Shown one piece after another: positions 12,078 to 50,379 of a stretch of DNA of 64,000 bases (positions are counted from its first letter, which is position 1; each line of letters begins with the position of its first letter). The notes under the pieces were generated by a model. It worked only from the letters and a program-made list of their open reading frames with translations. It had not been told where the DNA came from and ran no database searches. The stretch spans positions 96,100,001 to 96,164,000 of the forward strand of contig NC_135896.1 in assembly GCF_964194155.1 (NCBI RefSeq), read 5' to 3'. The translations under genes were made by a program, and so were the position numbers. The stretch comes from Cetorhinus maximus. Lineage: Eukaryota.

Positions 12078-12248
12078 GGAGGGGGGGAGGGAGGGAGGGT
12101 GGGAGGGGGGAGGGAGGGAGGGTGGGAGGGCGGAGGGAGTGAGGGAGGGGGGAGAATTCACCTACTCTTCTTTGAATGACATCATGAGATCTTTTACCTC
12201 TGCTGCAGAGGGAAGACAGGGCCTCGGTACAAAGACTCCTCTGACAGC

Positions 12249-12482
12249 CAAGATAAAAGCAGATGCTGGAAATCTAGAACAAAAACCAAAAATACCTGGA
12301 AAAACTCAGCAGGTCTGACAGCATCTGCGGAGAGGGACACAGTTAATGTTTCGAGTCTGGATGACCCTTCATCTTCTTCATCCTCTGTTGAAGAGTCATA
12401 CGGACTCAAAACGTTAACTGTATCCCTCTCCGCAGATGCTGTCAAACCTGCTGAGTTTTTCCAGGTATTTTTTGTTTTAGTT
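12249..12482. mobile_element. Fold-back Penelope-derived insertion (two outward 3' tails)
   Basis: Minus arm ~12252-12373 and plus arm ~12384-12480. 13-bp TSD CTCCTCTGACAGC at 12236-12248 and 12483-12495. Confidence 0.88.
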
Positions 12483-12767
12483 CTCCTCTGACAGCTGCTA
12501 GCTTTTTGTAATGAATTTCCAGGATAGGCATAGATCAGTGGTTTTTGCCGTTGTAGGTAGCCTGAATTTAATGCTGACAGAAATGTGTTTTTATTGTAAT
12601 GTGTTTTTATTCCAGTGTGCACCTGGCTAATTTGCCATTAGCCTCAACTTCAAACATGGCCCTTATGATTGAATTGAACCACCAGCTGAATTAAAAGTCA
12701 ACAAGGTTCAGATTAAAGGGATTGAGAATTATAACAGAAAACATTTTCATTTTAAAAAATGATCATT

Positions 12768-13095
12768 TTTATGCATTCATGGGATGTGTATCTCACTGGC
12801 TGGGCCAGCATTTATTGTCCATCCCTAATTGCCCTTGAGAAGGTGGTGGTGAGCTGCCTTCTTGAACCGCTGCAGTCCATGTGGTGTAGGTACACCCACA
12901 GTGCTGTTAGGGAGGGAGTTCCAGGATTTTGACCCAGCGACAGTGAAGGAACGGCGATATATTTCCAAGTCAGAATGGTGTGTGACTTGGAGGGGAACTT
13001 CCAGGTGGTGGTGTTCCCATCTACCTGCTGCCCTTGTCCTTCTAGATGGTAGCAGTTGTGGGTTATGGATGGTGCTGTCGAAGGAGCCTTGGTGA
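12768..13095 (-). mobile_element. LINE family A 3' fragment
   Basis: Encodes ...SWNSLPNSTVGVPTPHGLQRFKKAAHHHLLKGN* followed by a short 3'UTR. Confidence 0.78.
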
Positions 13096-13239
13096 GTGCA
13101 TCTCAAGACTCCATCTTGGTCACTTTGGAGGATTACTGGTGTCTAACTCTGCTGCCAGAAATCACCCTCACCACACTTCAATTTCAAAGGCAAGTTCCTG
13201 CCAATAACACACTGATGTGTGAACTTGCCTTTATTACAC

Positions 13240-13610
13240 CTGGAACATAATAATAGGAGGAAGCCATTCAGCCCCTCGAATCTGTTCCATCATTCAATTC
13301 GATCGTGGTTGATCTGTATCTTAACTCCATCTAACCACCTTGATTCTCTCTTAATACTCCCACCTAACAAAAATCCATTGGTCTCCCTTTGGGATTTTCA
13401 TTGTCCACCACTCCCCCAGCCTCAAAAGCTTTTTGGGGAGAGAGAGAGTTCCAGATTTCCACTCCCCTTTGTGTGAAGGAGTGTTTTCTGACATCACCCC
13501 TGAAAACGTTAGCTCTGATTTTAAGGTGATGTCTCTGTGATCTTCATTCCCCTGCCAGAGGGGATAGCTTCTCTCTATCTACCCTTTGAGATCATTTAAT
13601 CATCTTAAAG
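13240..13610 (-). mobile_element. CR1-type LINE 3' fragment
   Basis: GCCATTCAGCCCCTCGA..CCATCATTCAAT..GATC 3'UTR hallmark shared with 44365, 56345 and 58265. Confidence 0.65.
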
Positions 13611-13810
13611 GAGGTTTTGTGCTGCAGTGTCCTGGCCTTTGACCCAAAAGCTCTGGGTTCAAGTCCCACCCCAGGACTTTATGTCCAAGGAAGGTGTGTT
13701 CATAACGTGGTCAAACAGGCTGACTATCAACATGTAAATCCTTCCAACACACACCAATGGCAGGCGCTAAGAGCAGGAGAGATTCCTGGTCAGCCCTGTG
13801 ATGGAAGGAA
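13610..13810 (+). mobile_element. tRNA-derived SINE
   Basis: B-box GGTTCAAGTCC at ~13656-13666. A second copy lies at 8355-8555 (-). Confidence 0.6.
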
Positions 13811-16767
13811 CTGTAGTAGTAGGGTCTGGTACGCAAAGAGTTAATGTGGGGCTGAGTACAGTACCACCCACAGTGATGTAAGGAGGCACATGACCCAGAG
13901 CCAGGGTCAGTCTAGAGATGGACAGAGATGGGTAAAGACCTTGTCTGGAGCCAGCTCCATACCTGTACCCTCGACTGTAAAAATGTACATAGTTCTGGGT
14001 TGCTGATAAAGACTGGCTGTCACATACTCCAGGCTATGAGGCCTACTTCATGGGGTCTGAAGTCAGATTCTTCTGGAGGCTCCACCATCACTATCCATAG
14101 CTCCAGGCTACAACATGCATGTAAAAGTCTACTTTGCCCACAGTAACTTGGACTCCCCGTGTGAACTGTAACACACCGCCAATCATTTCAAACACCTCAA
14201 TCAGATAGATCACCCCTTCATCTTCTATATTCAGAGAAATACAAGCCAAGCCTATGAGACCTGTCTTCATAATTTAACCCTTTCAACCCTGGTATCAATC
14301 TGGTGACTCCACACTGTTAAAGAAGCAAAAACAGACAAGGAAAACCTTTCTCAGGCAGTTAGGGTTGGGGTCGGGAATGCTCTGCCTGAGAGTGTGGTGA
14401 AGGCAGATTCAATTGAAGCATTCAAGAGGGAATTAGGCTGTTACCTGAACAGGAGGGATGTGCAACGTTACAGGGAGAAGACGCCTCTCCACAGCCTGTA
14501 TGAGTTTACCTGAGGTGTGGTGTTGAGTTTTGGATGCAGTGTTCTGGATGATGTCTCACCACAGGGCTCTGTACAATTGTAAAATATTACCCACCTCTTC
14601 CTGCTATCTTGAGATAAAGGCCAACATTCCATGAGCATTTTTAAGTTTATTTTTTGTACCTATTCACCAGCTTGATATAATTTCCTGCACTTGGTCCCCT
14701 ATTTACAAGACACTCTGATCTCTCTTTCCTAGACATGGTTCCTCACACAAACGGAGAGAAACATAAACTGGAGAGGAGAGAGTCGAGCAACTGATCAGAG
14801 GGAGGGAGAGCAATGAAACAGCACGACAGAAAGAGAAACACAAACTGGCAGAGAGTGATATAGACAGGGGGAAAGAGGGAGGAGTGCAAACTGGGGGAGG
14901 GTGTGAAAGTAACACAAGCTCAGGAAAGAGAGAGAGAAACACAAACTGGGGGGGGGAGAGAGAGAGAGAGAGGTTAACAGAGAGGAAAATAGGAGAGGGA
15001 GGAAGAGCGAAACAAACATAGAGGGACAGTGACACAAATTGAGGGAGGGAGAGTTCCTGTCAGCCTGTGGCGTGCACTGTTATTTAATGTGTTTTGTTCC
15101 CGTGCTCAGGCAACTTTGATTCTTCCTGAGGAATAAGCCCCAATTTCCTGAAGGTGTGTTTCAGTGCTGGGGTACAGGAGTCAGTGATTTGAATTAGTTT
15201 TGGTTTTATTTATTATCTCTGACTTTAAGGTTATGTCCCTGTGTTCTCCATTCCCCTGCCAAAGGGAAGAGTTTCTCTCTGTCTACCCTTTAAGATCATT
15301 TAATCATCTTAAAGGAGGTTTTGTGCTGCAGTGTCCTGGCCTTTGACCCAGAAGCTCCGGGTTCAAGTCCCAGACTTTGCTGTACAAAGTTAGAAACACT
15401 GGTCAAAAGCTTCAGTTAGATGTTATACTTTCCAATGATGCTTTTGTTGAAACAGTGATATTTACTTGGTGTTTCTCATTGCATTGATATTGTAGAATCA
15501 GGGAACTAGGTTTTAATGAAAACATCATTCAATCTTTCTTTTTAATGTGCTTTTAATGTCCTTTCATTTACAAATTACATTATTCATCTCAGTGTAAAAA
15601 AAGGGAAATATTTTGTTTGGGGCTTGGTGGTACTGAGACATTCACTAAAAGTGCATGCAACAGTATTTGCAAATGTGGTCAAATGTCACATGACAAAATC
15701 TCCAGGAATATATCAAATCAGAGTTGGCAGCCCTATTGTTAGCTCCAAAATGGATGACCTCCGACCTTTCCACATTGAACTCAATCCTCCACTGTTTGGT
15801 CTACTCCACCAAGTTATCCCTTTCCAATGTTCTGCACCACCCCCATCTACAATACTTACTGTGCCTTATCTAACTTAGTGTCATAAGTTTAGAATTGGCT
15901 TCCAAGAGGATGTGCCAATATACCTCACAAATATATATATAAAGACTCACAAGTAAATAATATGTCACATCTCAGAAATATACCAATTACTTTCAAATAG
16001 AATCCTGTCATAAACAACAGCCACATTTCACACAGCAATTCACACAGCAAGCTCCCACAAGCACTTACATGGGCTGGTGTCCCTCGAGTTGGGTGGGGGG
16101 TGGAGGGGGAATGCTGTCCAGGTGAGCAACCCTGGAGCTCCTGTCCTCCAGTCAGCTCCCAAAGTGACCTGCCCCATATTTTAAGGGATTGCCCCTTATT
16201 TTGACTGGCTGCCCTGCTACCCCTAAGAGACGCCTTTTCTCCCTTATTTCGGGAATACTGACCCTTGGGGTCTCCAGGATGAGTTTGAGCGATTTGACCA
16301 GGACCTGCTCGTGAGTGAGTGGGCGAGGAGAGTAACAGATTAGTTGTCATTTTTTGTTAATTTTAATTACCCCCTCCACCCCACCACCCCCCAGCCCACC
16401 CCATTATGATGTTTCCAAGATGCCCCCTCTCCCCAACCCCTCTCATGTTGAAACCCCCCCTCCCCATCAGATGAGCTGCACCCCTCTCCCCCAGGCTGCA
16501 GGGTCCAAGTGTCCTTCATTTTATTTCCTAAGAGTTAAGGTCACCTTGTGCCATATGGAATTTTATAACATCAACTTGCACCAATAATTTAAAAAAAAGC
16601 AACATAAGAATTAGATGGTGTTGCAGGTGCTGCTGAGCCAAAAATAAGAGCTGGAATGAGGTTTATGTTTGTAAACATGTGTATCTGGTCCCAGAGTTAA
16701 GGCTTTGCTGAATGTTATGATCTGAACAGAAGAACAAATCCTATCAGGAGCTGGGGGCAGTGCCTAC

Positions 16768-17057
16768 ACCGGCCTGAGTCCTCCGGCTGGGAGGACCGAG
16801 CCATCCCGGCGTGCCGCGGGCCCCGTGTGGGTTGAGTCCTCCGGCTGGGAGGACCGAGCCATCCCGGCGTGCCGCGGGCCAATGCCGGGTTGAGTCCTCC
16901 GGCTGGGAGGACCGTGCCATCCCGGCGTGCCGCGGGCCCCATGCCGGGTTGAGTCCTCCGGCTGGGAGGACCGTGCCATCCCGGCGTGCCGCGGGCCCCA
17001 TGCCGGGTTGAGTCCTCCGGCTGGGAGGACCGAGCCATCCCGGCGTGCCGCGGGCCC
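16768..17057. repeat. 58-59 bp GC-rich minisatellite, 5 copies, in KATNBL1 promoter CpG island
   Basis: TGAGTCCTCCGGCTGGGAGGACCG.. recurs at 16775, 16833, 16891, 16950 and 17009. Confidence 0.95.
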
Positions 17058-17202
17058 GCTTTGAATGGCGCAGCTTCAGGTGAGGAGAGTGGCGGCCGGT
17101 GGGGCCCGTTAGCGGCTGATAGAGGCGAGGGGAAGCGGGGAGGAGGAGGAGGGACTGATTCTAACCGCTCGCAATCCCACTGAAATACTGTAAAATGTTC
17201 AG
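17058..17202 (+). promoter_or_regulatory. KATNBL1: Probable KATNBL1 TSS region / non-coding exon 1
   Basis: Clearest CpG island upstream of the first coding exon. Strong donor CAG|GTAAGT at 17202/17203. The exon 5' end is not determinable. Confidence 0.6.
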
Positions 17203-18931
17203 GTAAGTGACTTCCCTCCCGGAGGCTTCGCACTTGTGTAGTTTCTGCCGGGCAGGGAGATTGGGATTAACAGGAGGGGAGGGGGGGAGGGTAATTTCTT
17301 ATTTTTAATCTAAATGTATTTGTTGAACGTTTATAAACCCCTTGCGTCGGCCAACATTCTTGGGATCAGTGTAAACTAACTTGTCATTACCGGCTAAGAC
17401 CCAAAGCATAACCATTTATGTAATTTTTTGTAGGATTAATATTATAATAAAGCCTGAAAATGTCCCATTTTAAAATGTGGGAACTCATTCAACTATTATC
17501 TCAATTATCCCCAAAGAGCTGCCAGATCTCAGTAAGAAATTCGTTTGGGTCCATTTTGTTTGCCTGGCTGGGAGTGGCACTAAGGGAAGTCTGTATAAAA
17601 AGGGTAAGGTTATCAAATACCATTTTGTGAAATTGGTGGCTGGCAGATCGTCTACTGTTTGACAACTGTTGTTTTCTTTGTAGCTGCTGGGAATACAGAA
17701 TGCACGTTTAAAGTGTTTGTTACAAACCTGTGAGTGGCTTTGCAAGCTAACATTTTCAAACCTATTTCCAAAACAAACCTGTTCACAATTTTCGAAACTG
17801 GCGTCATGTTGTAAGCGTGAGTTAGTCACTGCTGTTGCCCTGGAGTCCTTTATTATTATTTTTTTTGAGGACCTGAGTTTTTCCTTTCATTCACGCTGAA
17901 TAATGTGGATGAACAGAACTGAGTGGTGAAAGCTAAAGGCAGTGGTGGTTGTGTGGGTAAGGTCTTCCACACTACTTTAGGTTTCTGAAGCAGTTTCACT
18001 GTTGCTCACTAGCTTTTGGATACATTGGAAGAAGGTGAGGTCGAATAGGATTTCTAAATGCCTTTACTTGTTTAGTGGGGAAGTATGTGCACATAACTGG
18101 TAACAAATCACTGCGCTTCAGGTGGGTGGTACCATTGGAACTAGGGCAGGCAATCTACTAAATTGACGACACCAAACAGATTAACTGGCCATTAATCTCA
18201 TTGAAGTTTGTGGAATATCCCTGCAGAGCAGCTGTGTGTTTGCCTGCTTAAGTCTCTCATTGTTTGAGCTGTTTTGACTTAATGTGCTACATGTATAAGT
18301 TATTAAATGTCCCCTATAACTGGGACATTTGTAATTCGAGGAAGGTATCATTCCCAAACCCCAGAGTGATGTGACTGGGCTACAACTGAACAATGATACT
18401 CCACTTTTGATATATGGATGTAATTTGTCAATTGTGTACTTAATAAAATTAACATTGCAACTAGAGCATTCATCCTTGCACCGGCTGTCAGGTTGAAGCA
18501 GAGAAAATCGCTGATAGGGGTCGTCTCTTAACACCTGATTCTGACGTGCTTGAGTCAGCTGAAGATTTGGCTCAGTTCCACCAAAGCCTTTCACAATAAT
18601 GTGAAAACAGCACATGTAAATCGCTGATCTTCAATTCTGTCTTAAAATGTGGTCTGATTCCATTGAATGTAGTATTCTTGTAACATGCTCCTACATAGTT
18701 ACAGACTGCTTGGTATATTGATGGTTAAAGAACACCTGATTGTTTATGACATTAACTTTGACCTCTTTTCAATGTAGAGTTGTCACTTTTTCCTGTATAG
18801 TGTTTCTGATCCTTTCCTAACCTCTGCCATTTCCAAATCACTATACTAACTCAAGGATAATTGAAACACAAACTAGATGCAGTATTTTTGTTTCTTGGAG
18901 CTGCTGGTGATCGTTTGTCTCGGCGCTCTGC

Positions 18932-19062
18932 AAAAATTAAAAAAAAACAGAAAATGCAGGAAAAACTCAGCAGCCATGTGGCCAGATACTGCCAGACCTG
19001 AGTTTTTCCAGCATTTTCTGTTTTTGTTTCAGATTTCCATCATCCGCAGTATTTTGCTTTTA
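18932..19062. mobile_element. Short fold-back Penelope tail pair
   Basis: GGAAAAACTCAGCAG (minus arm) facing CTGAGTTTTTCCAGC..TTTTGCTTTT (plus arm). Confidence 0.7.
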
Positions 19063-19479
19063 TCTTATTGCAGTATTAAGTATCCAGCTCTAATGTGACC
19101 ATTACAGAACTGTATTCAGCGAGTGGGTCTGTCTTTTGACTTTGTGATAGTGGTAACCTTGTCTGACAGGGGAGGAAGTAGGCTTCAGAGATCTTTACCT
19201 AAATACCATGTGGAAAATAAAAATAATTCTCTTTTCCACTTTAACTAAAACATTTCTAGTGTGTTGTGTGCCACTTTTGTTCTCTCTCTCTCTCTTCCCC
19301 CCACCCTCTCCCCCCACCCATTTTGGTGAAGTACTTGGCTTTTGTTCAATACTTTTGCAAGATATACAGTTGCTAGAGAAAAAGCAAAATACTGCAGATG
19401 CTGAGCATCTGAAATAGGAACTGCAAATGCTGCAAGGACTCAGCAGGTTGGTAGCATCTACGAGAAAACAGAGCTTAGG

Positions 19480-20030
19480 GCCTACCGGACAGCTGAAAGC
19501 ACAGCCTCCCAGTGGAGGAGCAGTTAAAATCAGGGTTGCTCAAGAGGCCAGAACCAGATGAGCATAGATATCGCGGAGGATTATGGGGCTGGACAAGATG
19601 ACGGAGATGGGGAGGAGCGAGGCCATGGAGGCATTTGAAACCAAGGATGAAAGATTTAGAATTGAGGCATTGATTGACCAGGAGCTGGTTTCAGCCAGCA
19701 TGCATACGGTTGGTGGATGAACGGAATTTGTTGCGAGTAAGGACACTGGCAGCTGAGTTTTGGATGATCTCGGTTTTGTGAAGGGTAGAAAGTGAGAGAC
19801 CAGCCAGGAGTGTGTTGGTATAGTCAAGTCTGGAAATACGAAAGCACGGATGAGGGTTTCAGCAGCAGATGAGCTAAAATGGGTGGAGTTGGGCGATGTA
19901 ACGGAGATGGAAATGGGTGGTCTTGGCCATGGCACAGATATGCAGTCAGAATCTCATCTCAGGATCAAGTATAACACTGATGATGTGAACTGTCCGGTTC
20001 CGTGTCTCACGTTTGCCAGGGAGAGGGATT
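19480..20030 (-). mobile_element. L2-like LINE ORF2 fragment
   Basis: Minus strand encodes SSSAAETLIRAFV, resembling the L2 AETLIHAFVTSRLDY motif. A related fragment lies at ~33560-34145. Confidence 0.65.
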
Positions 20031-20099
20031 GAATGGGGAGCAGGGATTGTAAACAATGGTCCATTATTTTTAAATCTACAACTAATACCTTGTCAATCT

Positions 20100-20422
20100 T
20101 TCCACCCCACCCCCACTAGAGCTGTACCTTGAGTGTCCTGCCATCCATTCTTAATTAGCACTTTTCTTAGATAATATCACCACCTTCAACACCTCTTTGA
20201 TCCTTTTGTCTGTGACATCTTTTGATTATCTGCTCCTATCACTGCTTCCTTGTCCCTACAACCACCCCCCACCCCCCACCTTAAACCAGCTTATACTTCA
20301 CCCCTCTCCTAACTATACTTCAGTTCTGTTGAAGGGTCGTGTGGACCCGAAACATCGACTGTTTTCTTCTCCACCGATGCTGCCAGACCTGCTGAGTTTT
20401 TCCAGGTAATTCTGTTTTTGTT
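20100..20422 (+). mobile_element. Penelope-like element 3'UTR fragment with hammerhead motif
   Basis: Collinear with 55550-55860. HHR-like motif at 20321-20361. Confidence 0.8.
20321..20361 (+). ncRNA. Minimal type I hammerhead ribozyme-like motif
   Basis: CAGTT-CTGTTGA-A-GGGTC-GTGTG-GACCC-GAAAC-ATC-GACTG: stem I, variant core, perfect 5-bp stem II, GAAA. Confidence 0.6.
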
Positions 20423-21619
20423 ATGGCTTCAAGCTTCCTGACATTTAAATTGAGGAAATTCCTGCTGGTTGTCAGACAAATAACCTAATAATTTGGTGAC
20501 AATAGAGGCATTGGAGGCCTTAGCACACATGGAAACTGACACTGTTTTCAGGTGATGTTGTGGAGGGGGGCAGCATGTAGGTGAGAAGCAGGAGGGGAAC
20601 AAGGATTGATCCTCGGTAGACACCAGAGCTAACTACAAAAGTAAGAAGAGAAACCGTTGCAAGTGGCACTCCAGCTATGATTAGAAATAGAAATGGGGAG
20701 GGAAACAAAGATGAAATGAGCGGAAAAAGATTAACACGAGAAAAAGTCAAAATTTTCCATTTTCTAAATTCACAAATTAACTAAATCAATGAAGTTTAAC
20801 ACTTGTAATAGTTAATTTTCAGTGTCAGGGAGAGTTTTCCTGGTTGTAATGAACAATTATCAGGCTATTTAAAGGCACTTAAGCTGCAATGGACATGACT
20901 TAACTTTCTGCGTTGAGGTTTATTTTGTATCTCCTCAGATACAATAACTTTGTGCCATTCAATTCAGTGCATTGGAATGATGAGTCAGATATCAAAAAGC
21001 CATTGTCATGAAGCTTTACTGAGCATTGCGATTTGGAGGGCAGCTTTTGGACATTTGAGTTAACGGTGCATTTGCCCATCAACTTTACTATTTGTACATA
21101 AAGAGCAGCAAGCATTTTTTGACAGGAAAATCTGGGTCATTATCACATTATTGTCACATGTTCTTTCTTCCCCCTTTTGTTCTCTTTCTGCTTTCTTTCT
21201 GTTTATTAGGGTCTGCAGAGCACACATGTAGCTGATCTCCACTATACGTGATCTCAGATTTCAGTGACACCCTGCAGTTGTCCTAGATCTAGCAGGCAGT
21301 TATTTTTTTTCCTTTTCCTGTATGACAGCTGTTCTTTGAGGGTGTGAATATCCATATAATTAGAATTAGTGAAGCACAATCTTTAAGGCTGATATAGCAG
21401 CTTCGAATTTCTCCATAGTTTTTTTTTTCTCAGCCATTTTCTTTCCACTGAAAGTATTTGTGTGGTCTCTTGCCCACGTGTCCAGTATTCAGATGCGAGA
21501 AGGTTATTGGAAGAATTCACAGTTCCAAAATTGACAAGGAATTGTGCTCTTACTATATATTTCTCATATGCAGTGTTAAAGCATTCCTTTTGTCTTAGCA
21601 GCTGAAAGACAGCTGGAAC

Positions 21620-22510
21620 TTCACCAATGGCCTTCCCTCCATCATATGATCAGAGGTGGGGAGGTTTGGTGATGAATGTGTAGTGTTCAGTGCCGATTGC
21701 AATTCCTCATGATAAAGCAGTCCATTTCCACATGCAGCAAGACCCAAACAACATCCAGTCTTGGCCTGATAACATTTGCACCACACAAGTGCCAGGCAAT
21801 GATCACCTCTCAGAAGAGAGTCTGGCCACCTTCCCTTGACATTCAATTACCATCACCATCATCAAATTCTCCCACCATCAACATTCTGGGTTTGGGGAGG
21901 AGGGGTGGGGCACCATTAACTGGAAACTTAAGCCCCACACATACTGTGGTTACAAGAGCAGATCAGTATCTGGGTATTCTGTGGCAAATGATTCACGCAT
22001 CTCCCCAACGTTCTTGCACCGCCTACAAGGCAGGAATCAGCATTGGGGTGGAGTTCTCTCCACTCGCCTGGACGAGTGCAGGTTCAAGTCAAGGAACCAA
22101 TGCTGTTTAAGACAAAGTAGCCAGGTTGGTTGCCATTGCATCCACCACCTTAAGCATTCACTTCCTGCACCGCCAGCACAACATGGCTGCAGTATGTACC
22201 ATCTACAAGATGCGCTACAGCAAATTGCCTGGGCTTTTTCAATAGCATCTTCCAAACCTGTGGCCACTACTGGCAAGACAGGGTAGCGTGCATGCGGGAA
22301 CACCACCACCTCCAAGTCGCGCACCATCTTTCAACAAGGCTGGACCAAAATCCTGAAACTCCCTACCTTCCTAACAGCACTGTGGGAGTACCTTCACTGC
22401 CTGGACTGCTGCAGTGCATGAACACAACTCACCAGCTTTTCAAGGACAATTGGAGAAGGACAATAAATCCTTGCATTCGCATTGACTTCTATATCCTGTG
22501 AATGAATAAA
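21620..22510 (+). mobile_element. LINE family A-related fragment, degenerate
   Basis: Plus-strand homologue of the 9233/12768 sequence, ending GAATGAATAAAA. Confidence 0.65.
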
Positions 22511-23552
22511 ATAAGCTTGCCTCAAAACTATTTTAAAATATTTTCATATGTAGGCATCATAGTTAAGATCGCCACTTTACAGTGAGTGAATATTTATGTT
22601 TTTGAAAAAAATGTATTTTGGGATTTTTTTCCCTCCCGTGTTTTGGGAATTGAGTCCCCACCACAAATTGAGTCAGTGGTTTTAATCTTGCTCTGTAGTT
22701 AGGATCTAAGCGAACTGTTTCAATTATTGAAACACCGGTTTGAAGTAGCTGAGGTGTCACTCGCACATAAAAATACAAGGATTAACTTTAAATTGTTGGG
22801 AAGAATATGTAGTGCAGTATTAATTCCCCCCTTTCCAAATGGAGTACCATCAGAGTTCCCATGCAGGTCATGCACAACTTTGAGTTACTGCACAAAACAA
22901 TTGAAAGGGCCGCAAACTGCCAAATAAAAATCAGAGGGCACAGTGCTTGGCTTGCCTAAAATTGGTTGTTTTAGGCAAGATTTTAGGAGAACTATTCATA
23001 CAAGTTTAACCTTTCCTGATACGGCGCTTTCCAACATATCGATGAGTATAGCAAACTCTTGTCCTGTGGTTCCTGTGATTAAACATCGAAAGAAGGAAGT
23101 GCAAAATCATAAGCAGAAAATACGATGCCCAATTATATGATGAGCTCCAGATACATGTCATCAACAAATAAAAGGATGTGGAACAGCATCAGTAGTTTCT
23201 GAAATGACATCAGTATTTTCAAAAAAAAAGTGTAGATTTATTAAAAAGGAAACCCCAAGCGATTCTGTTCAATATGAGGTCTTGTGTCCAACATGTTTAA
23301 TTGAGGAGCAACTGCTTATTCATAGATCTTAAGATTAGGTGCATATTTGATTAAATTAATTGGTGTTTAATATTATAAACCTGCATGCTGTTGCTTATGT
23401 GTGGTCGGGGACCCTGGAGAATGGAACAGATGTGAACATGAACTTGAAATGATGCCTGAGTTGGAAGCTGGATTGGTTTGGGGTGGGGTCGGTTTCATGT
23501 TACCTTGTTAATTGCAGTGAATACAGCGACTGGGATAGGCCTGTATGGATCT

Positions 23553-24462
23553 GAAAGAAAGACAGACTTGCATTTATGTAGCACTTTTCACAGCCGCTGA
23601 TTGGCTCAGAAGCGCTTTACAGCCAATTAATTACTTTTTGATGTGTAGTTACTGTTGTAATGGAGGGGCAGAATTTTCTGGCCAGCAAGCAGGGGCGGGG
23701 CCCGCTCGCCGATGTGTAAAATGACGTGTGGTGACATCGGGCAGGCGTCCCAACGTCACCGCGCACCATTTAGATTGCCGAGTCGGCTGTGCGCCCGCCA
23801 GACTGTCAAAGGCCTATTAAGGCCATTTAAATAGTAATTAATTCAATTAGCTGAGCTGCCCATTCAACCTCAAGGTTGGTGGCAAGCGAAGAGCCCAGGT
23901 GGCCTTCACATTTTTCATGAAACCTCATCCACGGGCGAGATGAGGTTTCATGAAGTGTTTTAAAATTCAATAAAAATTTTAAAAATAATTCTTTCACATG
24001 TCTCAGCTCATGGGGCCTTAATTGGCCCGCCCACGTAAAATGGCGGCGCGTCCCCGATCAAGTCCACACCCGTAACTTGCACGACCCCTGCAACAGGGGG
24101 AAAATTCAGCCCGAGTAAACACAACAGCTAATTTGCACTCAGTAAACTCCCACAACAGCAATGTGACGATGACCAGGTAATCTGTTTTTGTGATGTTGAT
24201 TGAGGGATAAATATTGACCAGGGCACTAGGGAGAATTCCCCTGCTCTTCTTCAATATAGTGCTACGGGTTCTTTCAATTCCACCCGAGCAGGCAGATGGT
24301 GCCTTGGTTTAATGTCTCAACCAAAAAATGGCACTTCTGACAGAGCAGTGCTCCCTCAGCACTGTCTTGGAGTGCCAGCTTAGACTTTTGTACTCAAGCC
24401 CTGGAGTGCGACTTGAAACCATGACAATGTGACTCGGAGTGCTTCCAAATGAGCCACAGCTG
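23553..24462 (-). mobile_element. Near full-length Deu-domain SINE interrupted by a MITE
   Basis: Tail AAAGAAAGACAGACTTGCATTTAT, Deu core at 24180-24380, head ..GAGCCACAGCTGAC. Confidence 0.75.
23666..24112. mobile_element. 447-bp non-autonomous Harbinger element (MITE)
   Basis: TIRs GGGCAGAATTTT / AAAATTCAGCCC (11/12 match). 3-bp TSD GAG at 23663-23665 and 24113-24115. Its first ~280 bp are homologous to 58-350. Confidence 0.88.
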
Positions 24463-25483
24463 ACGCTGGGAGCAGTGAAGTATGTGGCCTGGAAATAGCA
24501 AAGTTCAGGTTTTGTGCTGAGTAGAAATTTGAGAAACTGAATCTGGAATGTTTTTTAATGAAAGGAATTTTATATGATGTGTTTGGCTTAAGTATCACCA
24601 GAGCCCCCAATTTATCCCTGTGAATGTCTATGCATCCATTTCTTAAGCACCTCAAGGCTAGAATTACAAATGTTTTCCTCCCTGCAAATCCCTGGCTCCA
24701 TGCTTCACAAGTTAGACCTTATTGAAATATAATGTCCCGTCTACTTTCCTGTGCACAGTCCTGCACCACCTCCATTGTCTGCTTACCTGATTGAACAAGG
24801 CCCAGTGAATCGCTTTTAAGATCCTAATATTTGTGTTCAGATCCTTCCATTGTCTTGCCCCATCACACCTCGATCATTTCCTCGAGCAGTATGTGCCTTC
24901 TGCCTCTAACATTGAATTACTGTATTTTCTATTTACTTCCTCAGCCATTGGTGGTTTTTCCTGCAGCCACTGTGGTCTGCCCCTCCGATATCCCCTCCAG
25001 TGTTCCCTTTGCTGTGCCTTCAAAAACCTCCTTTGAAACTCCATTTTGACTGACTTCCTCTTCTCTCCTGCTTGGAATCCCAACATTATTCTTTCCCCCT
25101 CTGCAGTGTTCAGGCAACTTTCTTATGTTATAGAAATGTAAGTGAAATTCTGTTTATGATTCCGAAACGAACGGGCTCCTTTTACATTTAATTATGCATT
25201 GTAAGGAAACTGGAGTTTTCAGATAAAAGGCTGTTTGTTAAGAATTGTTGGTAACAGGTCCAGTGGCCAGGGAGACTCTAACTCAAAGCAGTTTAGTGTC
25301 TGTGGTAAAAAGCAGAGTATCTCAGAATCTGGGTCCAAGCTGAAGAGGATGGGGCGAGGAGGATTGATTAGGGCAAACCAAGCTGGCCGAGTGGGTTGGC
25401 ATCTAACTATCTTGTTGAAGATTAATAAAAAGAGTCAATAGTAATTATTCTCATTTGTTTCTAATCTAGGATTGCAAGTGATT

Positions 25484-25606
25484 ATGGCATCTAGACATCA
25501 AGATGTCAGGCAAGGTGTATTGTCATTTGGTGTGGAGGATGAATGCTTCGAAAAAAGGCAACTTGCTAAAAGGATGCATCCTGATTGCAATGAGACTATG
25601 AAAAAG
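25484..25606 (+). CDS. KATNBL1: KATNB1-like protein 1, coding exon 1
   Basis: Acceptor TAG at 25469, ATG in strong context (ATTATGG), MASRHQDV...NETMKK, donor GTGAGC, phase 0. Confidence 0.8.
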
Positions 25607-26591
25607 GTGAGCCGAAAATATTTGTAGTTTCATTCTGCAATGTGTATAATTGCCTCATCTCATTAAGTACTATTTTTATTCACTGAAATCACTGTAGTTT
25701 GTATCGGAGACATGTGCCTTTGCGCAAGTGCATTACATAGCATTTCCGTTCCCAGCCTTGTCCAGTGTCCCAAACTAGTCTTCTCAATAGTTATCCTTCT
25801 GTTTTCAATAATGTGATGTTCCCTCATTATTTTATTTTCAGACTTTTGCCTTTTTTTGCTCTGGGCCCTGTCATAGATTCCAGAAAGCAGGGAAACTGCA
25901 CCAGGTCTGGAGCTTCAGGTCTTGTACCAGTCACTTTGCCATTGTTCAAAAGTGACCCTATGGTGATTGACCCTTCCTATCAGAGACTCCTGGTCTCTAG
26001 GAAGTGCACCACATTTTGCCAATCCACAGTATGTATAGATTATAATCTGTTGTAGCATCTCTCTCAAGTCCTTTGCCTTTAGCACTGCCCCATTTCTGTC
26101 AAAAGCCTGAAGTGTGACCCTGAGCTTCTGGTCACCTGTCTGTGTGTGTGTATATATTTATATTGGCCATATAATTATGGTGGTGTAGTCTGCAAGTCTA
26201 ATAGCCACACACCTCCCCACCCTTATTGTGTCAATTACGTGCATTTCTACAATGTTTTAGCAGGTGGCCTAGAAACACTTTTGTGGGGCAGATAGAAATT
26301 GTTAAGCAGCTTCGTAATGCTGCATACAGCAAGTGAAAATATAAAAACTGTTGTAATCAAATCTCCCCTGTACTTTAACTACTACAGAATCCTCATTGCA
26401 AATAAGAAAAATGAAAAACTAACCCTTGATGAAATTCTTTTGGCAGATGTTCTCTTTCTCGTTGACTTTGGACTTGAGATGAGCGAGTTGCCCATTTCAA
26501 GGCCAGACTTGCACTCCTGACCTACTGTTTTTCTCTCTCCTTCTTCCCTGCCACAGGGAAGGCTGCTCGTCTGACATCTTTCCCATCGAGT

Positions 26592-26758
26592 TAAAAGCAA
26601 AAAATTGTGGATGCCCGAAACCCAAAACAAAAATAAAAATACCTGGAAAAACTCAGCGGGTTCTGTTGAAGAGTCATACGGACTCGAAACATTAACTGTG
26701 TTCCTCTCTGCAGATGCTGCCACACCTGCTGAGTTTTTCCAGGTATTTTTATTTTTGC
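26592..26758. mobile_element. Fold-back Penelope-derived insertion with hammerhead motif
   Basis: Minus arm 26592-26660, plus arm 26660-26758. 12-bp TSD TTCCCATCGAGT at 26580-26591 and 26759-26770. Confidence 0.88.
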
Positions 26759-27140
26759 TTCCCATCGAGTGGTTTGCCAATAAGCCTGTCAATAAAACCA
26801 GCCACCTCTCCTTCTCCCCACACCCTGGAGTGCAGCTTCAAAGGAAAGGCTTCTAAATAGACTGAGCTTTGTGACACTCTGCAAACTAGCTAATCTGGTT
26901 TCATATCTAAAGTGCCTGGCCCAAAAACAAATAAACCTTTGTCTAAATGGTTAAAGCCCATGGCTCTTTCAAATCTTTCTGAAATCACTGTTTTATGGCA
27001 TAGCACTTATTTAGGAATGAGTCACATTTGAAAAGTTCAAAAATCAAAGAACATGATAGTTATTTGAATTGAGCAAAACACTTGATGTTTTTGGCTTGAA
27101 GTGATTGTTAGAAGTAGTCATAACAATAATTTTTTTTTGT

Positions 27141-28412
27141 TAAAAGCAAAAAACTGCAGATGCTGGAAATCCAAAATAAAAATACCTGGAAAAACTCAGC
27201 AGGTCTGGTAGCATCTGCGGAGAGGAACACAGTTAACGTTTCGAGTCCGTATGACTCTTCAACAGAACTAAGTAAAAATAGAAAAGAGGTGAAATATAAG
27301 CTGGTTTAAGGGGGGCGGTGGGACAGGTAGAGCTGGATAGAGGGCCAGTGATAGGTGGAGATAGCCAAAAGATGTCATAGACAAAAGGACAAAGAGGCGT
27401 TGAAGGTGATGATATTATCTAAGGAATGTGCTAATTAAGGATAGAAAGCAGGACAAGCAAGGTACAGATAGCCCTAGTGGGGGTGGGGTGAAGGGAAGGG
27501 ATCGAAATAGGCTAAAAGGTAGAGATAAAACAATGGATGGAAATACATTTAAAAATAATGGAAATAGGTGGGAAAAGAAAAATCTATATAAATTATTGGG
27601 AAAAAAAAGTGGGGGGGATCGGAAAGGGGGTGGGGATGGAGGAGAGAGTTCATGATCTAAAATTGTTGAACTCAATATTCAGTCCGGAAGGCTGTAAAGT
27701 GCCTAGTCAGAAGATGAAGTGCTGTTCCTCCAGTTTGCGTTGAGCTTCACTGGAACAATGCAGCAGGCCAAGGACAGACATGTGGGCATGAGAGCAGGGT
27801 GGAGTGTTGAAATGGCAAGCGACAGGGAGGTCTGGGTCATGCTTGCGGACAGACCGAAGGTGTTCTGCAAAGCGGTCACCCAGTCTGCGTTTGGTCTCTC
27901 CAATGTAGAGGAAACCGCATTGGGAGCAACGAATTCCCTAATTGAGGGAAGTGCAAGTGAAATGCTACTTCACTTGAAAGGAGTGTTTGGGCCCTTGGAC
28001 GGTGAGGAGAGGGGAAGTAAAGGGGCAGGTGTTGCACCTTCTGCGGTTGCGTGGGAAGGTGCCGTGGGAGGGGGTTGAGGTGTAGGGGGTGATGGAGGAG
28101 TGGACCAGGGTGTCCCAGAGGGAACGATCCCTGCGGAATGCCGCCGGGGAGGGGGGGGGTGAAGGGAAGATGTGTTTGGTGGTGGCATCCTGCTGGAGTT
28201 GGTGGAAATGGCGGAGGATGATCCTTTGAATGCGGAGGGTGGTGGGGTGATAAGTGAGGGCATGACTTGCTATCATGGTTCTGGGAGGGAGAGGAAGGTG
28301 TGAGGGCAGATGTGCGGGAGATGGGCCGGACACGGTTGAGGGCCCTGTCCTCCACCTTGGGTGGAAAACCTCAGTTAAGGAAGACATGTCAGAGGAACTG
28401 TTTTTGAAAGTG
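27141..28412 (-). mobile_element. 5'-truncated Penelope-like (Neptune-type) retroelement
   Basis: Minus strand encodes RIQRIILRHFHQLQQD..RRDRSL..RRRCNTCPF and GIY-YIG remnants, then the 3'UTR with HHR at 27231-27269. Confidence 0.88.
27231..27269 (-). ncRNA. Minimal type I hammerhead ribozyme-like motif
   Basis: Reverse complement: AGTT-CTGTTGA-A-GAGTC-ATACG-GACTC-GAAAC-GTT-AACT, with palindromic AACGTT as stem III. Confidence 0.65.
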
Positions 28413-29920
28413 TATTTTTTTGTGTCTATCCCTATTTAGATAAAGCATATTTTTACTATTTATCATGCTCAGTAGCAAAGCAAACAATAGAAATAAAAAC
28501 AGAAAATGCTGGAAATACTTAAGTCTACCAGCAGCTGTGGTGAGAAAGAGTTAATGTTTCAGATCAATGACCTTTCATCATGACCATTAGCATGCTTTTT
28601 GTTTTCAAAATAGACATTTTAGCGTATTATGGAATCCTTTATATCTAATTCTGGCAATACTCTATGCTAAACCACCAAGGTACTTTTGAAGTGATGAGTA
28701 TTAGTTTGATTTAGAATCATTGAATAGTTACAGCACGGAAGAGGCCATTTGGCCCATTGTGTATATGCTAGCTCTCTGAGAGCTGAGCAGCTATCCTAAT
28801 TCCCTGCCTTTTCCCTGTAGCACCCCCCTTACATTTTTTTTTTCTCTTCAGCTCATTATCTCAGTCCCTTTCGAAAACCAGGGTTGAACCTGCCCCCACC
28901 ATGCACCCAGTTGCTGACTGGTTCATTCTTGTGTGCAGTATTTTATAAGGATATATTTGTCTAAAACTAATGCATTGAATTATGAGGTCAAGCTACTTAA
29001 ATTTAGTTTGCTAAATTTGCACTGGCAACATAATCTAGCCAATCTCCTATTGATATCTTCAGATTAAATAGCAACACTTGCATTGGGTAGGTTAAAGACT
29101 TACATACATTGAAGTAAAGCATCAACAGATGTGTAGCACATTTGCCCATATATAAATCATCTATACAACTATTTTGAATGTGTTAGCTGCAAATCTCAAG
29201 AGTTCCATTCTTAATTCATAAAAATGCATACTTAGAAGGCACCCAACTGTGCCATTGTTTTATGGATATTCTAGCTGGAGAATCCAGTAGTTAAGCATAA
29301 AGATAAAGTTTGTTTGAAACTTTTTTTTAAAAAAAAAGGAATTAAACCCTTTTAAGTTTGAAAAAAAACTTTTCTAACTTAGTTCAGATAGATTAGTATC
29401 TGTCTGAGGCTATTTGCTGCATTGTTACATTCATTAATTGTAAAATTTCAGACTGGGACCTGTTCTTGGAAGATGCTGTTTTAAAGTATTGCAACCTTTT
29501 TTCAATGGTCAATGTAATTGATCAAGGATTCTCCCATTTTGGAAAAAAATATATTCCTTTCTACAGTTTTTGAGAATTGAACGCATTCTCAATCTGCATT
29601 TTTGCCGTAGGCATTAATGCGCACTGTGTTAGGTAGGGTCAGAAATTGAATGCTAAAAGTAACAGCATCAAATGTATATTTCTTAATTAAATTCTTACGC
29701 TGTCAGTCAGATACGTCCATGATAATGACAACTGCAGGCTTCAGGCTAACTGTAGTCTATGGGAAGTGGTCAGATCCAGGTCTTTGTACATTAGAGAAAT
29801 ACGGCAGGCTTACATAATATTTTTTCCCTACAAGAAGCCCTTTCATGCCAGCCAAAGATTTATCTGAGTAAGCTATTGCTCATAATGTAGAAATTTATAA
29901 TGACTGTGTTTTAATACCAG

Positions 29921-29964
29921 GTTCGAATCTCGGAATGTAAAGAGGAGAATCCTGAAATTAAAAG
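29921..29964 (+). CDS. KATNBL1: KATNBL1 coding exon 2
   Basis: CCAG acceptor and GTGAGA donor. 44 bp (VRISECKEENPEIKR); phases 0/2 join the flanking exons in frame. Confidence 0.7.
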
Positions 29965-30759
29965 GTGAGATCAGTCCCTGATTTAACTTGTTTGTATGGT
30001 AACACTTGTCTAGACTGTTAGGCCTCCTATTGCACTATCCATAATTTTACTTTAAAGGATAAACTTTTAACAAATTGTCCTTGCTCTCTAGGAGTTGGTT
30101 TTTGAATATGTTTAAATTGAGTAGGAAGAGAGTCCGCTGCACCTGATGTAGCACAAGGCCCAATCTGTTTTCCTAGTTGCATCACTTTTTAATAGCACAG
30201 TGAACTGCCAGAGCTGAACAAGTGTGGACAGGTAGCTTGCTGATGTGGAGGGTGGGAGTGAGAAAACTACTGGTTCCTCTGCCGAGGGAATTTGGAATTA
30301 CTAGCATTCCATGCATTCCTGACATGGGGATGCAGTGGAGGAATTGGCAGCAGGCAGAAAGTTTTTCTGGGGCTTAGAGGAGAAATCATGCTCCCTCCTG
30401 ACCTCAAAAATAATTGAAAAAGCTATATTTTTCTTTAATGGAGTGGCAAAGCACCCCCAAACTCCCTGCAGCCCTTTCAGGCCACCTTCATTACGTGAAT
30501 CAAATGCTATATGTGTTTCGCTTAATGGAAAACCAGCATTGCATTGAACCTTGGATCTAAATGGATCTTAGTAAAGTATTTTGGTCAGGGTTCTGAGGTT
30601 CTCAACTCCTTTGGAAGCACTTGCTATTTTAAATTGAAGCCAGAAGCACACGGTGAGACACCCCCTGAAGCAAAGTTTGAAAGTTTTCATTTTCAAACCA
30701 CTACTCCCATACAACCCCGAAAAACTACACCCCGGAAAGCAAGTAGGTAGATGCCATAG

Positions 30760-30841
30760 AGCAAAGTACTCAGCAATTCAGGCAGCATCTGTGAAGAGAA
30801 ATAGAGTTGATGTTTCGTGTCAATGACTTTTCATCAGAACA
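30760..30841 (-). mobile_element. Old Penelope-derived short insert with CTGATGA-core hammerhead remnant
   Basis: Reverse complement GTTCTGATGAAAAGTCATTGACACGAAACATCAACTC. Confidence 0.65.
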
Positions 30842-32626
30842 GTTGTTGTAGGTTGTGTCCTCGTCTCTCATCATGGTTAGTATGTGCCGTATGTGCTCTG
30901 GAATAAACTAGTTTTAAGACCTGCTTCTACCTCAGAGCAGTGACCATTTTCTCTGCTGTGAATTTGGTCATGCATTTGTGCGTGCACAGACAGTGGTACA
31001 AGAGCACTTTTGATGACCTGTATGACGTGTTGAAAAGTTGGGGTGGATACTGAAGTGATGAGCACTCTATATTTTTTTAAACTCACTGGAAAGAGGAATA
31101 TACTTAACAAGTAATTGCTGGCCTTCCTTTAAAGTCATGATGTATACTGTATATACTCATGTAAGCATCAATCTTGTATAAAAGTCGATCCCATGCCTTT
31201 TGGCTGGAAATAACAACTTTTCATATACCTCAAGGATCAAAGCCCAAAAATTTCAGAACCAAAGTATAATCTCTACAATCACATCACACACCTCAATGCA
31301 TTATTCACAGAGAAAAATTACACTTGCCATATTTCCCCCAGTTCCTCGTTGTCAATTGAGGCAGCAAGAGATCAATTTTGAATTTTGGGAGGAGAAACTG
31401 ACAGATGGGAGAGGAGTAATAAACTGAACCCATGAAAACAGAATGCAGGGACCAGCCTCCGGAGCGAGCTTGAAATAAATGAAAGTCAGGGCCTTGTGTC
31501 CTCAACCGTTGAGCTCAGCCCTCCTTGGGGGGGGCGGGGTTGGTGGCGGCTTGGGCCTTGACGTTTGGGTCCTTGCGAGTACGACTCAGTGCAGTCCCCC
31601 CAGCACTAAGGCTTAGATCAAGGGATGGGAGCCATCAGGGTGACATTTTCCAATGGTGCAGCCCTTGTCCTGGCCCCAGCAACCCCCACCCACCCCCAAC
31701 AGCATTGAAACCGTAGGCCCAGTCGACAGCTTCCTCTCCTGGGGGGCGGGGGAGGCGCCTTAATAAAAACGAAGGGGGGTGGGGGGGGGTGAGAGAGAGT
31801 GAGAGAGATGATAAATGGATAGTGTGGAGCCACTTTCTCCATTCATTTCAGTGCCATGTTAGGTGTGCGGGTGGGTATGCTTTAGTTGAAAGTAAACCAT
31901 TCCAAAATGTTACTCGTTTAAAAGCTGACCCCTAACTTTTTACCTAAACAGTTGGTCTTAATAAGAGTATAGATGGTTATTAGCTGCAGTGCACTAGTTT
32001 CTGATGATGTCACAGATGCAGAAAATATTATAACATCTCTTATGAAACCCAATTGTACTGATGCCTTTGCCCTCCTCCACTTCATTAACCCCTAATATAA
32101 AAATTATCAATTGCTTTCATGCAACTCCTGGCCTAGAGATTATGCTGGAGGGGGAAACAAATACGATTTGCTAAACAGTCGAATAACCAGTTCGTGATAC
32201 TGAAGTTGGCCTTACTAAGGCTGTAGAACAGAACTAAGCTAAATGAGCTCAGTCATTAATATTGCATATTTCATTACAATTCAGATCTAGAATTTAATGG
32301 AGGAATTCATTGCTTTGAATTGTCATATATTCCCAAACATTACAAAGAGAATTTTTTATATACCTAAGATGCGTTTCTCATGTCCAAGGTTGTACTTCCA
32401 GCACCACCACCCCCCTTCCAGATGAGATCCCCAAGTTCTGCATTAATTTCATGAGATGGGGCAGTGTTTCTTTTGTTATAATTAACAAAGGGCCACCATG
32501 GGGAACAGCTTTGTACAATTTTTATTTTGTTGTTTGGTGGAAGTGCTGGCCTGTAGTTTGGAAAGGAGTATAATGTGATTTTTCTGGCTGCAAGTGTGTG
32601 TACGACTGTTGGATTTGTCTCTACAG

Positions 32627-32903
32627 ATCATCTACTGGACAAACGGAGAAAACATTGCACAGAACATCCAAAGCGACGTGCTATAAAAAGAAGAGTAGAC
32701 ATCGAGTCCAAAGTAACGTGAGCAACGGAAAGCAGCATCCAAGCTTGCTGGACTGTGAAATGGCAAATAAAGAAAACGAAGTAGTCTGTTCAGGAACTGT
32801 ACCTAAATTAAGCAATGACAATCGCAGCTCACTGTTGAACTCTAGTGATTCTCCTGCTTCACAGACTGGTGCTACTGTAACATATGCAGATTATTTTGCA
32901 CAG
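32627..32903 (+). CDS. KATNBL1: KATNBL1 coding exon 3
   Basis: CEMANKENEVVCSG...LLNSSDSPASQT..YADYFAQ resembles the KATNBL1 CDMANKENE motif. AG/GT boundaries. Confidence 0.92.
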
Positions 32904-33324
32904 GTGGGATGTCAAAAATTCTCCAATGTTGCTACAACATATTTCTGAGAGTTTTTTGATGATGCCCATTGAAAATGTGGTCTGACTGTGAGGAAACCAC
33001 TTTTTTCCCCCAACCTTCAAGTATTTATCCAGTTCCCTTTTGAAAATTATTATTGAATCTACTTCCACCATCTTTTCAGACAATGCATTCCAGCGCCTAA
33101 TCATATTATCCTCATCTAACTCTGGTTATTTTGCCAATTACCTTAAATCTCTGTTTTCTGCTTACGAGCTCTTCTGCTAAAGGAATCTTAATTACTCTAT
33201 AAAACCCTTCATGATTTTGAACATCCTTATTAAACCTCCCTTTAAGCATCTCTCCTCTAAGGAGAACAGCCTGAAGTTCTCCAGTCTCTCCACATTTGCT
33301 TGATCCGAGAGGTCGATTTCAAGA

Positions 33325-33538
33325 TAAAAGCAAAATACCACGGATGCTGGAAATCCGAAATAAAAACAGGAAATGCTGGAAAAACTCAGCAAGTCTGGCA
33401 GCATCTGTGGAGAGAGAAACAGTAAACATTTGGAGTCCGTATGACTCCTCTTCAGAGCTGCATACGGTCTCAAGACATTTTCTCTGTCTCCACAGATGCT
33501 GCCAGACCTGCTGAGTTTTTCCAGCATTTTTTATTTTG
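33325..33538. mobile_element. Fold-back Penelope-derived insertion
   Basis: Minus arm 33325-33460, plus arm ~33470-33537. 14-bp TSD GGTCGATTTCAAGA at 33311-33324 and 33539-33552. Confidence 0.88.
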
Positions 33539-34149
33539 GGTCGATTTCAAGAACTGTCTTGGAGGAGGAGTAAGGGGTAAGGTTTAGAGAGGAAATTTCA
33601 GAATTTGGGCCCTCAGCAGAATGGCTGCCGACGATGAGGCATTAGTAATTTAGGTTGTGAGAAAGACTGGAACTGGAGAAGTGCAGAAATCTGGGAGGGT
33701 TATAAGGCTAGAGGAGGTTAGAGCTGAGGTGGGGTGGTGGCAGGGTGAGCCCATAAGTCTTTTGAACACCAGGATGAGAAGTTTAAATTTGAGACATTGC
33801 TTGTAGATCAGCGAGTATGGATGAACAGAATTTGGTTTGAGTTCGTATACGGGCCGCAAACTGTTGGATGACCTAAAGTTTATAGAATGTCAGAGACTGG
33901 CCAAATTAACAGTTGTAGCAGCAATGGGTTGATATGTAGCAAAGAAAGAAAATATTGTGCATTTTGAAGTAGGTGGTCTTATTGATAGAGAGGAAGTGTG
34001 ATCAGTAGCTCAGCTCAGTCAAATAAGATGCAGAGGTTGCAATCAGTCTAGATCAACCTCAGTCAGTGGCTAGGGAAGAGGAATGCACTAAATGGCTAGG
34101 GACAGTGTAGCGAGGACGGAAGGCAATGACTTGGGTCTTTCTAGTATTT

Positions 34150-47975: not shown

Positions 47976-48535
47976 AGTAACATGTAGGCGGTCGTAAAAG
48001 GGGAAGGATGACCTTGGGGGTTGCCACTGATGGGCAAAGGGGACTCGCAAAGGGAGGTTCTTCAACCACCTCCCCCACCCCCCAGCCCTCACTCCCTTGC
48101 CTGACACCATCCTGCACAGCTAAAGCTGCTTGGCGTGGGCCTCCCCTGCTGCAGGTACAGGTAAAATAGGGGCTGGCATAGGGCCTCAATAGGGTGAGCC
48201 TGACGCCTCCATTTCCCCTGACACCACCCACACCCTCTGCCCTAGAGTTTGGGGCAGGTGGCGGGCAGGCCATGTGCTGCATTTTACGAGCGCCCAGTCT
48301 CAAACCCACGGGCAGGGCAGTGTAATATCCAGCCTGATGCTTTCATCCACAGATGTCTGTCTCTCCACAGATGCTGTCCGACCCGCTCAGATTTCCAGCA
48401 TATCCGCAGTATTTTTGCTTTTGGCTGTGCATTGATTGATTTATTAAACAACTGAAGGTGTGTGTGTGTCCTTTGTGTTGAGCTTTAATGCTTGTAATTT
48501 AAAAAGGTGCCACAATGATTTGAGCCAGAGAGGGG

Positions 48536-48549
48536 CCAATGATTGACAG
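48536..48549 (+). promoter_or_regulatory. Overlapping CCAAT box and PBX-PREP/MEIS decamer TGATTGACAG
   Basis: GGCCAATGATTGACAGC at the upstream edge of the EMC7 minisatellite. Confidence 0.45.
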
Positions 48550-48594
48550 CTGAGGCTGAGAGGGGTGGGGGGGGAGAGACTGTGAGACACTGGG

Positions 48595-49975: not shown

Positions 49976-50008
49976 CGGGTTCAGTCTCTCACTCCCACCG
50001 GGACCAGG

Positions 50009-50202: not shown

Positions 50203-50379
50203 GTAAGGAGAGGCCGAGGCCTCGGGACTGGGGCCTAGGACCGGGGACTGGAGCTGGGGACCAGCCCTGGGCCTCACCCTCCTCCTGTTTAATGGTGATA
50301 GGGTCAGTCTTGCTCTGAGCAGCCTGGGGAGGAGGATCTGACTCCTTCCCCCACCTCAGGAAACAAAAGGCCATCCACT

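Follow-up and report, generated by a model that had tools for sequence, protein, structure and literature searches.

Short fold-back inserts of a Penelope-like element in the Cetorhinus maximus genome nearly always carry one tail and are likely products of two-ended priming

A stretch of 64,000 nucleotides from Cetorhinus maximus (NCBI RefSeq assembly GCF_964194155.1, contig NC_135896.1, positions 96,100,001 to 96,164,000 of the forward strand; hereafter the window) was analyzed for short inserts derived from a Penelope-like element (PLE). Each of four such inserts consists of the 3' end of the element on the - strand followed by the same 3' end on the + strand. One arm ends in a GCTTTT(ATCTT) tail, and the opposite arm ends at a T-tract about 35 nt earlier. 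The inserts were confirmed to be real and abundant, and they represent the shortest form of the inverted-repeat-plus-tail insertion published for endonuclease-bearing (EN+) PLEs. It is rather probable that each insert arose in one event, in which both cut strands of the target primed reverse transcription at two internal start sites of the RNA. Two-ended priming itself is likely, because a purified PLE protein was shown to extend both strands of its target, starting at two sites within the RNA (PMC11167929; here and below, published systems are described from the accessible text of the papers cited).

The arms of the four inserts (loci 1 to 4) and the target-site duplications (TSDs) around them are given below, with 5' ends numbered from an AG|TTCTG boundary at the base of a hammerhead-like motif.

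12236..12248, left TSD copy of locus 1, 13 bp
12249..12373, - strand, tail-bearing arm of locus 1, 5' end at +4
12374..12383, junction of locus 1, 10 nt aligning with neither arm
12384..12482, + strand, tail-less arm of locus 1 with a hammerhead-like motif inside, 5' end at +1
12483..12495, right TSD copy of locus 1
18929..18973, - strand, short tail-less arm of locus 4
18983..19067, + strand, tail-bearing arm of locus 4
26580..26591, left TSD copy of locus 2, 12 bp
26592..26661, - strand, tail-bearing arm of locus 2, 5' end at +63
26660..26758, + strand, tail-less arm of locus 2, 5' end at -1, with a 2-nt overlap with the tail-bearing arm
26759..26770, right TSD copy of locus 2
33311..33324, left TSD copy of locus 3, 14 bp
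33325..33462, - strand, tail-bearing arm of locus 3, 5' end at -5
33461..33538, + strand, tail-less arm of locus 3, 5' end at +14
33539..33552, right TSD copy of locus 3

The original prediction, made from the letters of the window, had described perfect TSDs of 13, 12, and 14 bp at loci 1 to 3, and exact repeats of these lengths were found at 12236/12483, 26580/26759, and 33311/33539, respectively. At locus 3 the TSD is given as 10-14 bp, since up to 4 of its bases also match the element's own end. The fourth insert (18932-19062), which had been described as without a clear TSD, showed no direct repeat of 6 bp or more at its edges, and in a wider search the only repeat was a 9-mer lying about 50 nt beyond the left arm. 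The composition of the inserts and the inequality of their arms were borne out as well: the arms correspond to the final 40-140 nt of two longer, GIY-YIG-bearing copies at 27141-28412 and 54000-55901, and over their common parts the two arms of the three TSD-flanked loci are identical at 87/96, 35/37, and 50/55 positions. About 10 nt are missing internally from the tail of locus 1. The arms of locus 2 are non-nested, in that the tail-less arm contains the hammerhead-like motif and the tail-bearing arm does not. When flanks were swapped between loci as a control, a TSD score of 10 was reached in 0 of 600 draws; 18 of the 47 real minus/plus pairs scored at least 11.

The occurrence of one tail per insert was counted in a genome sample of 155 stretches of 10 kb (1.55 Mb), taken at round-number positions on 21 large contigs without formal randomization; five of the stretches adjoin the window. 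A search with a profile of the element's last 150 nt identified 168 arms, including 77 tail-bearing, 88 tail-less, and three unclassified arms. Among arm pairs no more than 25 nt apart, 27 were head-to-head, one was tail-to-tail, and three were in tandem. A tail-bearing arm was joined to a tail-less arm in 25 of the 26 classifiable close head-to-head pairs (p=4e-7 against 0.5), and the remaining two of the 27 included one unclassified pair and one that was tail-less on both arms (L139). This one-tail rule was also observed in 15 of the 16 TSD-verified pairs at any spacing below 4 kb, the last being unclassified, and in 27/28 and 16/17 pairs from two similarity searches, which favor the fold-back layout through their queries and from which the duplicates L001, L006, and L186 were excluded and L215 was later dropped. 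As a strict regularity supported by counts, the rule is a modest addition to published descriptions. The longest TSD repeat ranged from 9 to 18 bp with a mode of 14 bp (19 of 54 verified inserts), and insert lengths in the sample and the window ranged from 98 to 3168 bp. Scaling 27 pairs per 1.55 Mb to 4.0 Gb gives a rough extrapolation of about 70,000 such hairpins in the genome.

Both arms of an insert appear to have arrived in one event of independent origin, as had been proposed for the window. A single TSD encloses both arms, and no second TSD was found at the junction. Of the 54 TSD-verified inserts, 15 sit in host repeats with uninterrupted paralogs, which represent empty sites carrying the target once; the modal flank overlap at these paralogs equals the TSD length in 13 cases, is tied in one, and falls one base short in one. 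Arm differences at non-CpG positions were smaller within than between inserts in each of two sets (1.71 vs 3.63, n=21, p=0.0002; 1.86 vs 5.88, n=7, p=0.005). Two separate insertions, where a second copy would enter the 5' end of a first one in reverse orientation, are conceivable in a family as dense as 168 arms in 1.55 Mb and would agree with arms that occasionally differ at polymorphic sites. They are nevertheless very improbable given the single TSD around both arms and the 27 head-to-head pairs against one tail-to-tail pair, and they would leave the one-tail rule without a reason.

MITEs, or miniature inverted-repeat transposable elements, and the twin-priming inversions of L1 provide further points of comparison, namely a hairpin look with a TSD and an inversion made during one integration. 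A fixed mobile unit of the MITE-like or retrozyme-like kind would be suggested by the inserts of 220-240 bp, which are numerous since their two arms share a stop point. Neither a fixed internal sequence nor a constant TSD length was found among the inserts, whose overall lengths (98-3168 bp) and TSDs (9-18 bp) both vary, and the closest genome-wide matches to loci 1 and 2 have other junctions and other TSD sequences. Identical junctions across loci, named in the original prediction as a sign of one fixed unit, were searched for; the junctions instead differ between loci, and therefore the inserts are not one MITE. The shared flanks of L212 and L215 indicate a segmental copy, that is, one duplicated locus. 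A fixed unit is thus extremely improbable, and the fold-back inserts are products rather than mobile units.

Classical twin priming yields two segments that were copied from separate, non-overlapping stretches of the RNA. Such an L1-type process, acting on one RNA without strand displacement, would yield the inverted arrangement, the TSD, and the short junction overlap. In contrast, the inserts studied here duplicate the 3' end, and the same RNA segment is copied by both arms with an overlap of 35-100 nt. The strict form, which retains a very slight chance, was rejected on account of the overlapping arms, and a version with strand displacement would be a sub-case of two-ended priming.

Self-priming, or snap-back, is the published suggestion for inverted PLE structures (PMC3846280). 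Here a primed complementary DNA (cDNA) or antisense template would fold back and copy itself, and resolution by the endonuclease would leave a one-sided tail. One tail per insert follows naturally from such a process, which also agrees with arms that are mostly alike and with certain junctions that are short palindromes or overlaps. However, non-nested arms, solo copies of both end types, and allele discordance favor two separately primed cDNAs over snap-back, and self-priming is considered unlikely. Of 15 short inserts with a verified TSD in the sample and the window, seven, including locus 2, have non-nested arms; in these seven, the start of the tail-bearing arm lies 10 nt or more downstream of that of the tail-less arm, so that each arm has sequence that the other lacks. 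A TSD no more than 60 nt from the arm was found around seven tail-less and three tail-bearing solo copies among 116 arms searched, and the existence of the tail-less ones indicates that the proximal site was used without a fold-back. Discordance was evaluated at six sites, each with two alleles that are both seen in other inserts on a matching pair of arms. In 11 of 28 inserts the arms disagreed, 15 times in all, compared with about 4 differences that background mutation would produce (p=1e-5) and 68 under random pairing; the latter comparison also tells against two separate insertions, as the alleles are far more concordant than such pairing would produce. These differences hint that the arms were sometimes copied from two different pseudo-long terminal repeat (pLTR) copies or templates, with site-specific mutability as the alternative.

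Under two-ended priming, a staggered cut of about 14 bp would expose two 3' ends that both prime reverse transcription in one event; of two internal sites with a spacing of about 35 nt, one strand would use the distal and the other the proximal one. Each cDNA would then run 5'-ward and stop randomly or preferentially at the AG|TTCTG point, and joining of the two cDNA ends would involve an overlap of 0-6 nt or the addition of a few bases. A single lasting cDNA would give a solo copy with a TSD, either tail-bearing or tail-less, and one or both cDNAs running far would give the classical long inverted structure. Priming by both target strands at two fixed sites, as suggested in the original prediction, is supported by the one-tail rule (25/26) and by the in vitro precedent (PMC11167929), while two other parts of that proposal were not upheld. 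Firstly, priming was thought to need pairing with the U-rich tracts. Measured in 52 inserts against a two-sided null, with ends that could not be parsed left out, the target-RNA match averaged 1.97 nt at tail-bearing ends (null 0.82, n=36) and 1.28 nt at tail-less ends (null 0.75, n=25), or about 2.0 and 1.3 nt against 0.8; as these matches exceed the null yet are absent in 6/36 and 9/25 ends, pairing would assist priming and not be required for it. Secondly, the arms do not represent RNA 3' tails, as the element reads through the 'tail' into its open reading frame (ORF; see below). The mechanism proposed earlier is probably right in outline and was largely anticipated by in vitro work of 2024. 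A more specific version, put forward tentatively and with some doubt, is an obligate asymmetric integration, where a dimer of the reverse transcriptase (RT)-endonuclease protein would give the distal site to one strand and the proximal site to the other, possibly on two pLTR templates, with run-off where the RNA would have its 5' end, at the base of the hammerhead.

A number of observations weigh against two-ended priming from two fixed sites. The L139 pair was scored as tail-less on both arms, at a locus damaged by local duplication, and two pairs from the similarity searches, L018 and L202, were scored as tail-bearing on both arms, neither with a scoring TSD. A scoring TSD was found in only 12 of the 27 close pairs of the sample, and no usable empty paralog was found for any of the window's own loci. 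The inverted arm of a long fold-back at 53255-55903 stops at neither start site, about 90 nt ahead of where such arms usually end. Non-nested arms could also be produced from a perfect hairpin if its center were deleted asymmetrically. Additionally, the PLE biochemistry comes from the Penelope/Poseidon clade and applies by analogy to the present element, which has the linker motif of Neptune/Nematis, and the accessible text of PMC11167929 shows no strand difference in the start site, so that the one-tail rule is not predicted there.

The separate copy used as a reference and three related inserts beyond those of the original prediction are as follows.

7243..7347, - strand, solo tail-less copy with an 11-bp TSD (7232-7242 / 7348-7358) and its 5' end at the hammerhead base
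27141..28412, - strand, separate 5'-truncated PLE copy used as reference, with the endonuclease (EN) region, 3' untranslated region, hammerhead-like motif, and tail
47283..47974, composite insert with a 12-bp TSD at 47271 / 47975
53255..55903, long fold-back of 2.6 kb flanked by a 14-bp TSD (53241 / 55904) that contains one mismatch

The composite insert includes a tail-bearing arm (-, about 365 nt), a tail-less arm (+, 47646-47746), and a piece of the EN region (-), and this three-piece arrangement at 47271-47986 suggests an extra template switch. The long fold-back, which together with its TSD occupies 53241-55917, joins an inverted arm (53255-54019, -) to a main copy (54000-55901, +) that contains a GIY-YIG frame at 54839-55375.

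Judging from the frames of these longer copies, the element is a GIY-YIG EN+ PLE with the linker motif of Neptune/Nematis. The Pfam GIY-YIG family matched 54839-55372 with E=2.5e-4 and 21.7 bits, slightly under the cut-off of 22.6, and the same frame in the copy L060 gave only E=0.13. In EN+ PLEs, the endonuclease follows a telomerase-related RT within one ORF. A YIDD motif, presumably from an RT, lies upstream of the EN frame, and no match to a Pfam RT family was found in the broken frames of L060. A CX4CxxC motif precedes the GIY-YIG domain and is visible in the frames 54839-55375 and 27965-28435; this linker is a mark of the Neptune and Nematis clades (PMC8557442). Two near full-length copies, L060:2212-5630 and L075:6892-7231 onward, have a pLTR-ORF arrangement with broken frames. 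In these and in the long copy L157, the 3' terminus recurs before the ORF as a partial-tandem pLTR, and the sequence runs on through the 'tail' into the ORF. The element therefore continues past the tail, and both arm ends lie within the RNA rather than at the end of the transcript. In L075, an inverted tail-less arm stands directly before a pLTR that begins at the 5' stop point and is followed by the ORF. RNA folding at the pLTR-ORF junction was unremarkable (z=-0.85). Nested tandem and inverted PLE pieces were also observed at L171:6923-7967, where the sequence continues beyond the tail for about 20 nt and then switches to the EN region.

The 5' ends of the arms cluster at the AG|TTCTG boundary. 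Relying only on 5' ends defined by a junction and a TSD, 13 of the 40 arms in 20 verified inserts end at -5 to +9, 17 at +12 to +83, none at -94 to -6, and 10 farther upstream. A histogram of all arms placed 50 of 136 within -6 to +8, a proportion that is inflated because the references missed upstream sequence of rarer subfamilies. The full-length copy L075 also begins at the AG|TTCTG stop point, and the AG is retained in 20 of 20 read-through copies across subfamilies. The preferred reading, held at about an even chance, is that the stop point is the 5' end of the RNA. The AG at this point resembles both initiator and splice acceptor motifs. In Drosophila virilis, a promoter and an intron are found in Penelope (PMC2377424), and the intron runs up to the 5' end of helix I (PMC4209133). 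A cap-derived extra G was not supported among 27 stopped arms with the AG, where the preceding base was G in 6, T in 10, C in 7, and A in 4, and no common upstream exon was found at the stop point among 59 arms. Two comparisons with contigs that were mostly only guessed to be RNA (runs X1-X4) gave no splice-like ends at the stop point among the 15 joints listed per comparison, of 28 and 96 joints respectively, and no start positions were obtained from them. A pyrimidine tract and the invariant AG were observed just upstream of the hammerhead-like motif, at 27268-27290 of the window and in equivalent positions.

Full arms contain a minimal hammerhead-like motif, in which 93.5% of cells are paired among 16 copies, including 100% in helix II. 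Covariation in its helices was no better than in shuffles (246/500). No Rfam hammerhead match was found within 10000-60000 of the window; the five matches obtained there were all below the gathering score, and the microRNA matches, including a sub-threshold microRNA hairpin at locus 1, reflect the hairpin only. The predicted motif is similar to the minimal hammerheads of metazoan PLEs (PMC4209133) in its type-I form, the 5-bp helix II and 4-bp helix I, the extra base before helix II, and a palindromic helix-III region in each full arm. In contrast to those hammerheads, the core of a common subfamily has CUGUUGA in place of CUGANGA (window 12384-12425, 26660-26703, and 27226-27272). The inverted arm of the long fold-back stops a few bases beyond the position where the hammerhead is predicted to cut.

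The structure of the inserts is not new, as it proved to be a minimal form of the published inverted-pLTR-plus-tail insertion. For example, Pen2a of Adineta vaga has an inverted pLTR, a 31-bp tail on one inverted repeat, and TSDs of 8-10 bp (PMC3846280). An inverted truncated copy is common in PLEs, with a tail of 30-40 bp that is often one-sided (PMC8557442), and inverted copies and tails serve as features in PLE curation (PMC8969392). The present inserts share with such complex EN+ PLE insertions a head-to-head inverted 5'-truncated copy, a one-sided tail of 30-40 bp, one TSD, and a short junction overlap (PMC3846280, PMC8557442). They differ in consisting mostly of two stubs of 40-140 nt with no ORF between them, in a modal TSD of 14 bp compared with 8-10 bp in the rotifer examples, and in a one-tail rule that was counted here and described as 'often' elsewhere.

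The closest biochemical parallel is the Poseidon protein of Anolis carolinensis, which in vitro cleaves and extends both strands, with two internal starts that delimit the tail (PMC11167929). As in the inserts, the spacing of its start sites corresponds to the tail and a hammerhead lies just upstream, the template being uncleaved RNA. In contrast, Poseidon belongs to another clade and starts in an AC-rich stem-loop without target homology, while the start sites proposed here fall within U-rich tracts, where target matches of 1-2 nt are slightly in excess. Inverted genomic products are not discussed in the accessible Poseidon text of PMC11167929, and inverted stubs are not treated in that of a retrozyme preprint (10.64898/2026.07.22.740005). 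Within the accessible literature, no paper was found that gives two-ended priming as the source of inverted pLTRs, and the origin of tandem and inverted PLE structures is called an open question (PMC8557442, PMC11167929).

Besides the counted one-tail rule, the modest additions of this study include the 5' stop point, the hint of two templates, and the non-nested arms. The rule, the 14-bp stagger, and the stop point provide quantitative predictions for the existing in vitro system. If the asymmetric two-ended reading were true, tens of thousands of stubs would represent a fossil read-out of the process, and the self-priming model would be replaced. Additionally, fold-back hairpins of this kind can be misfiled as MITEs or microRNA precursors.

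Other features of the window included a 353-amino-acid frame at 391-1452 (+) that matches DDE_Tnp_4 (E=2e-21) and is presumably a Harbinger-like transposase. A long C-rich tandem repeat was observed at 48444-50377, which is open in several minus-strand frames.

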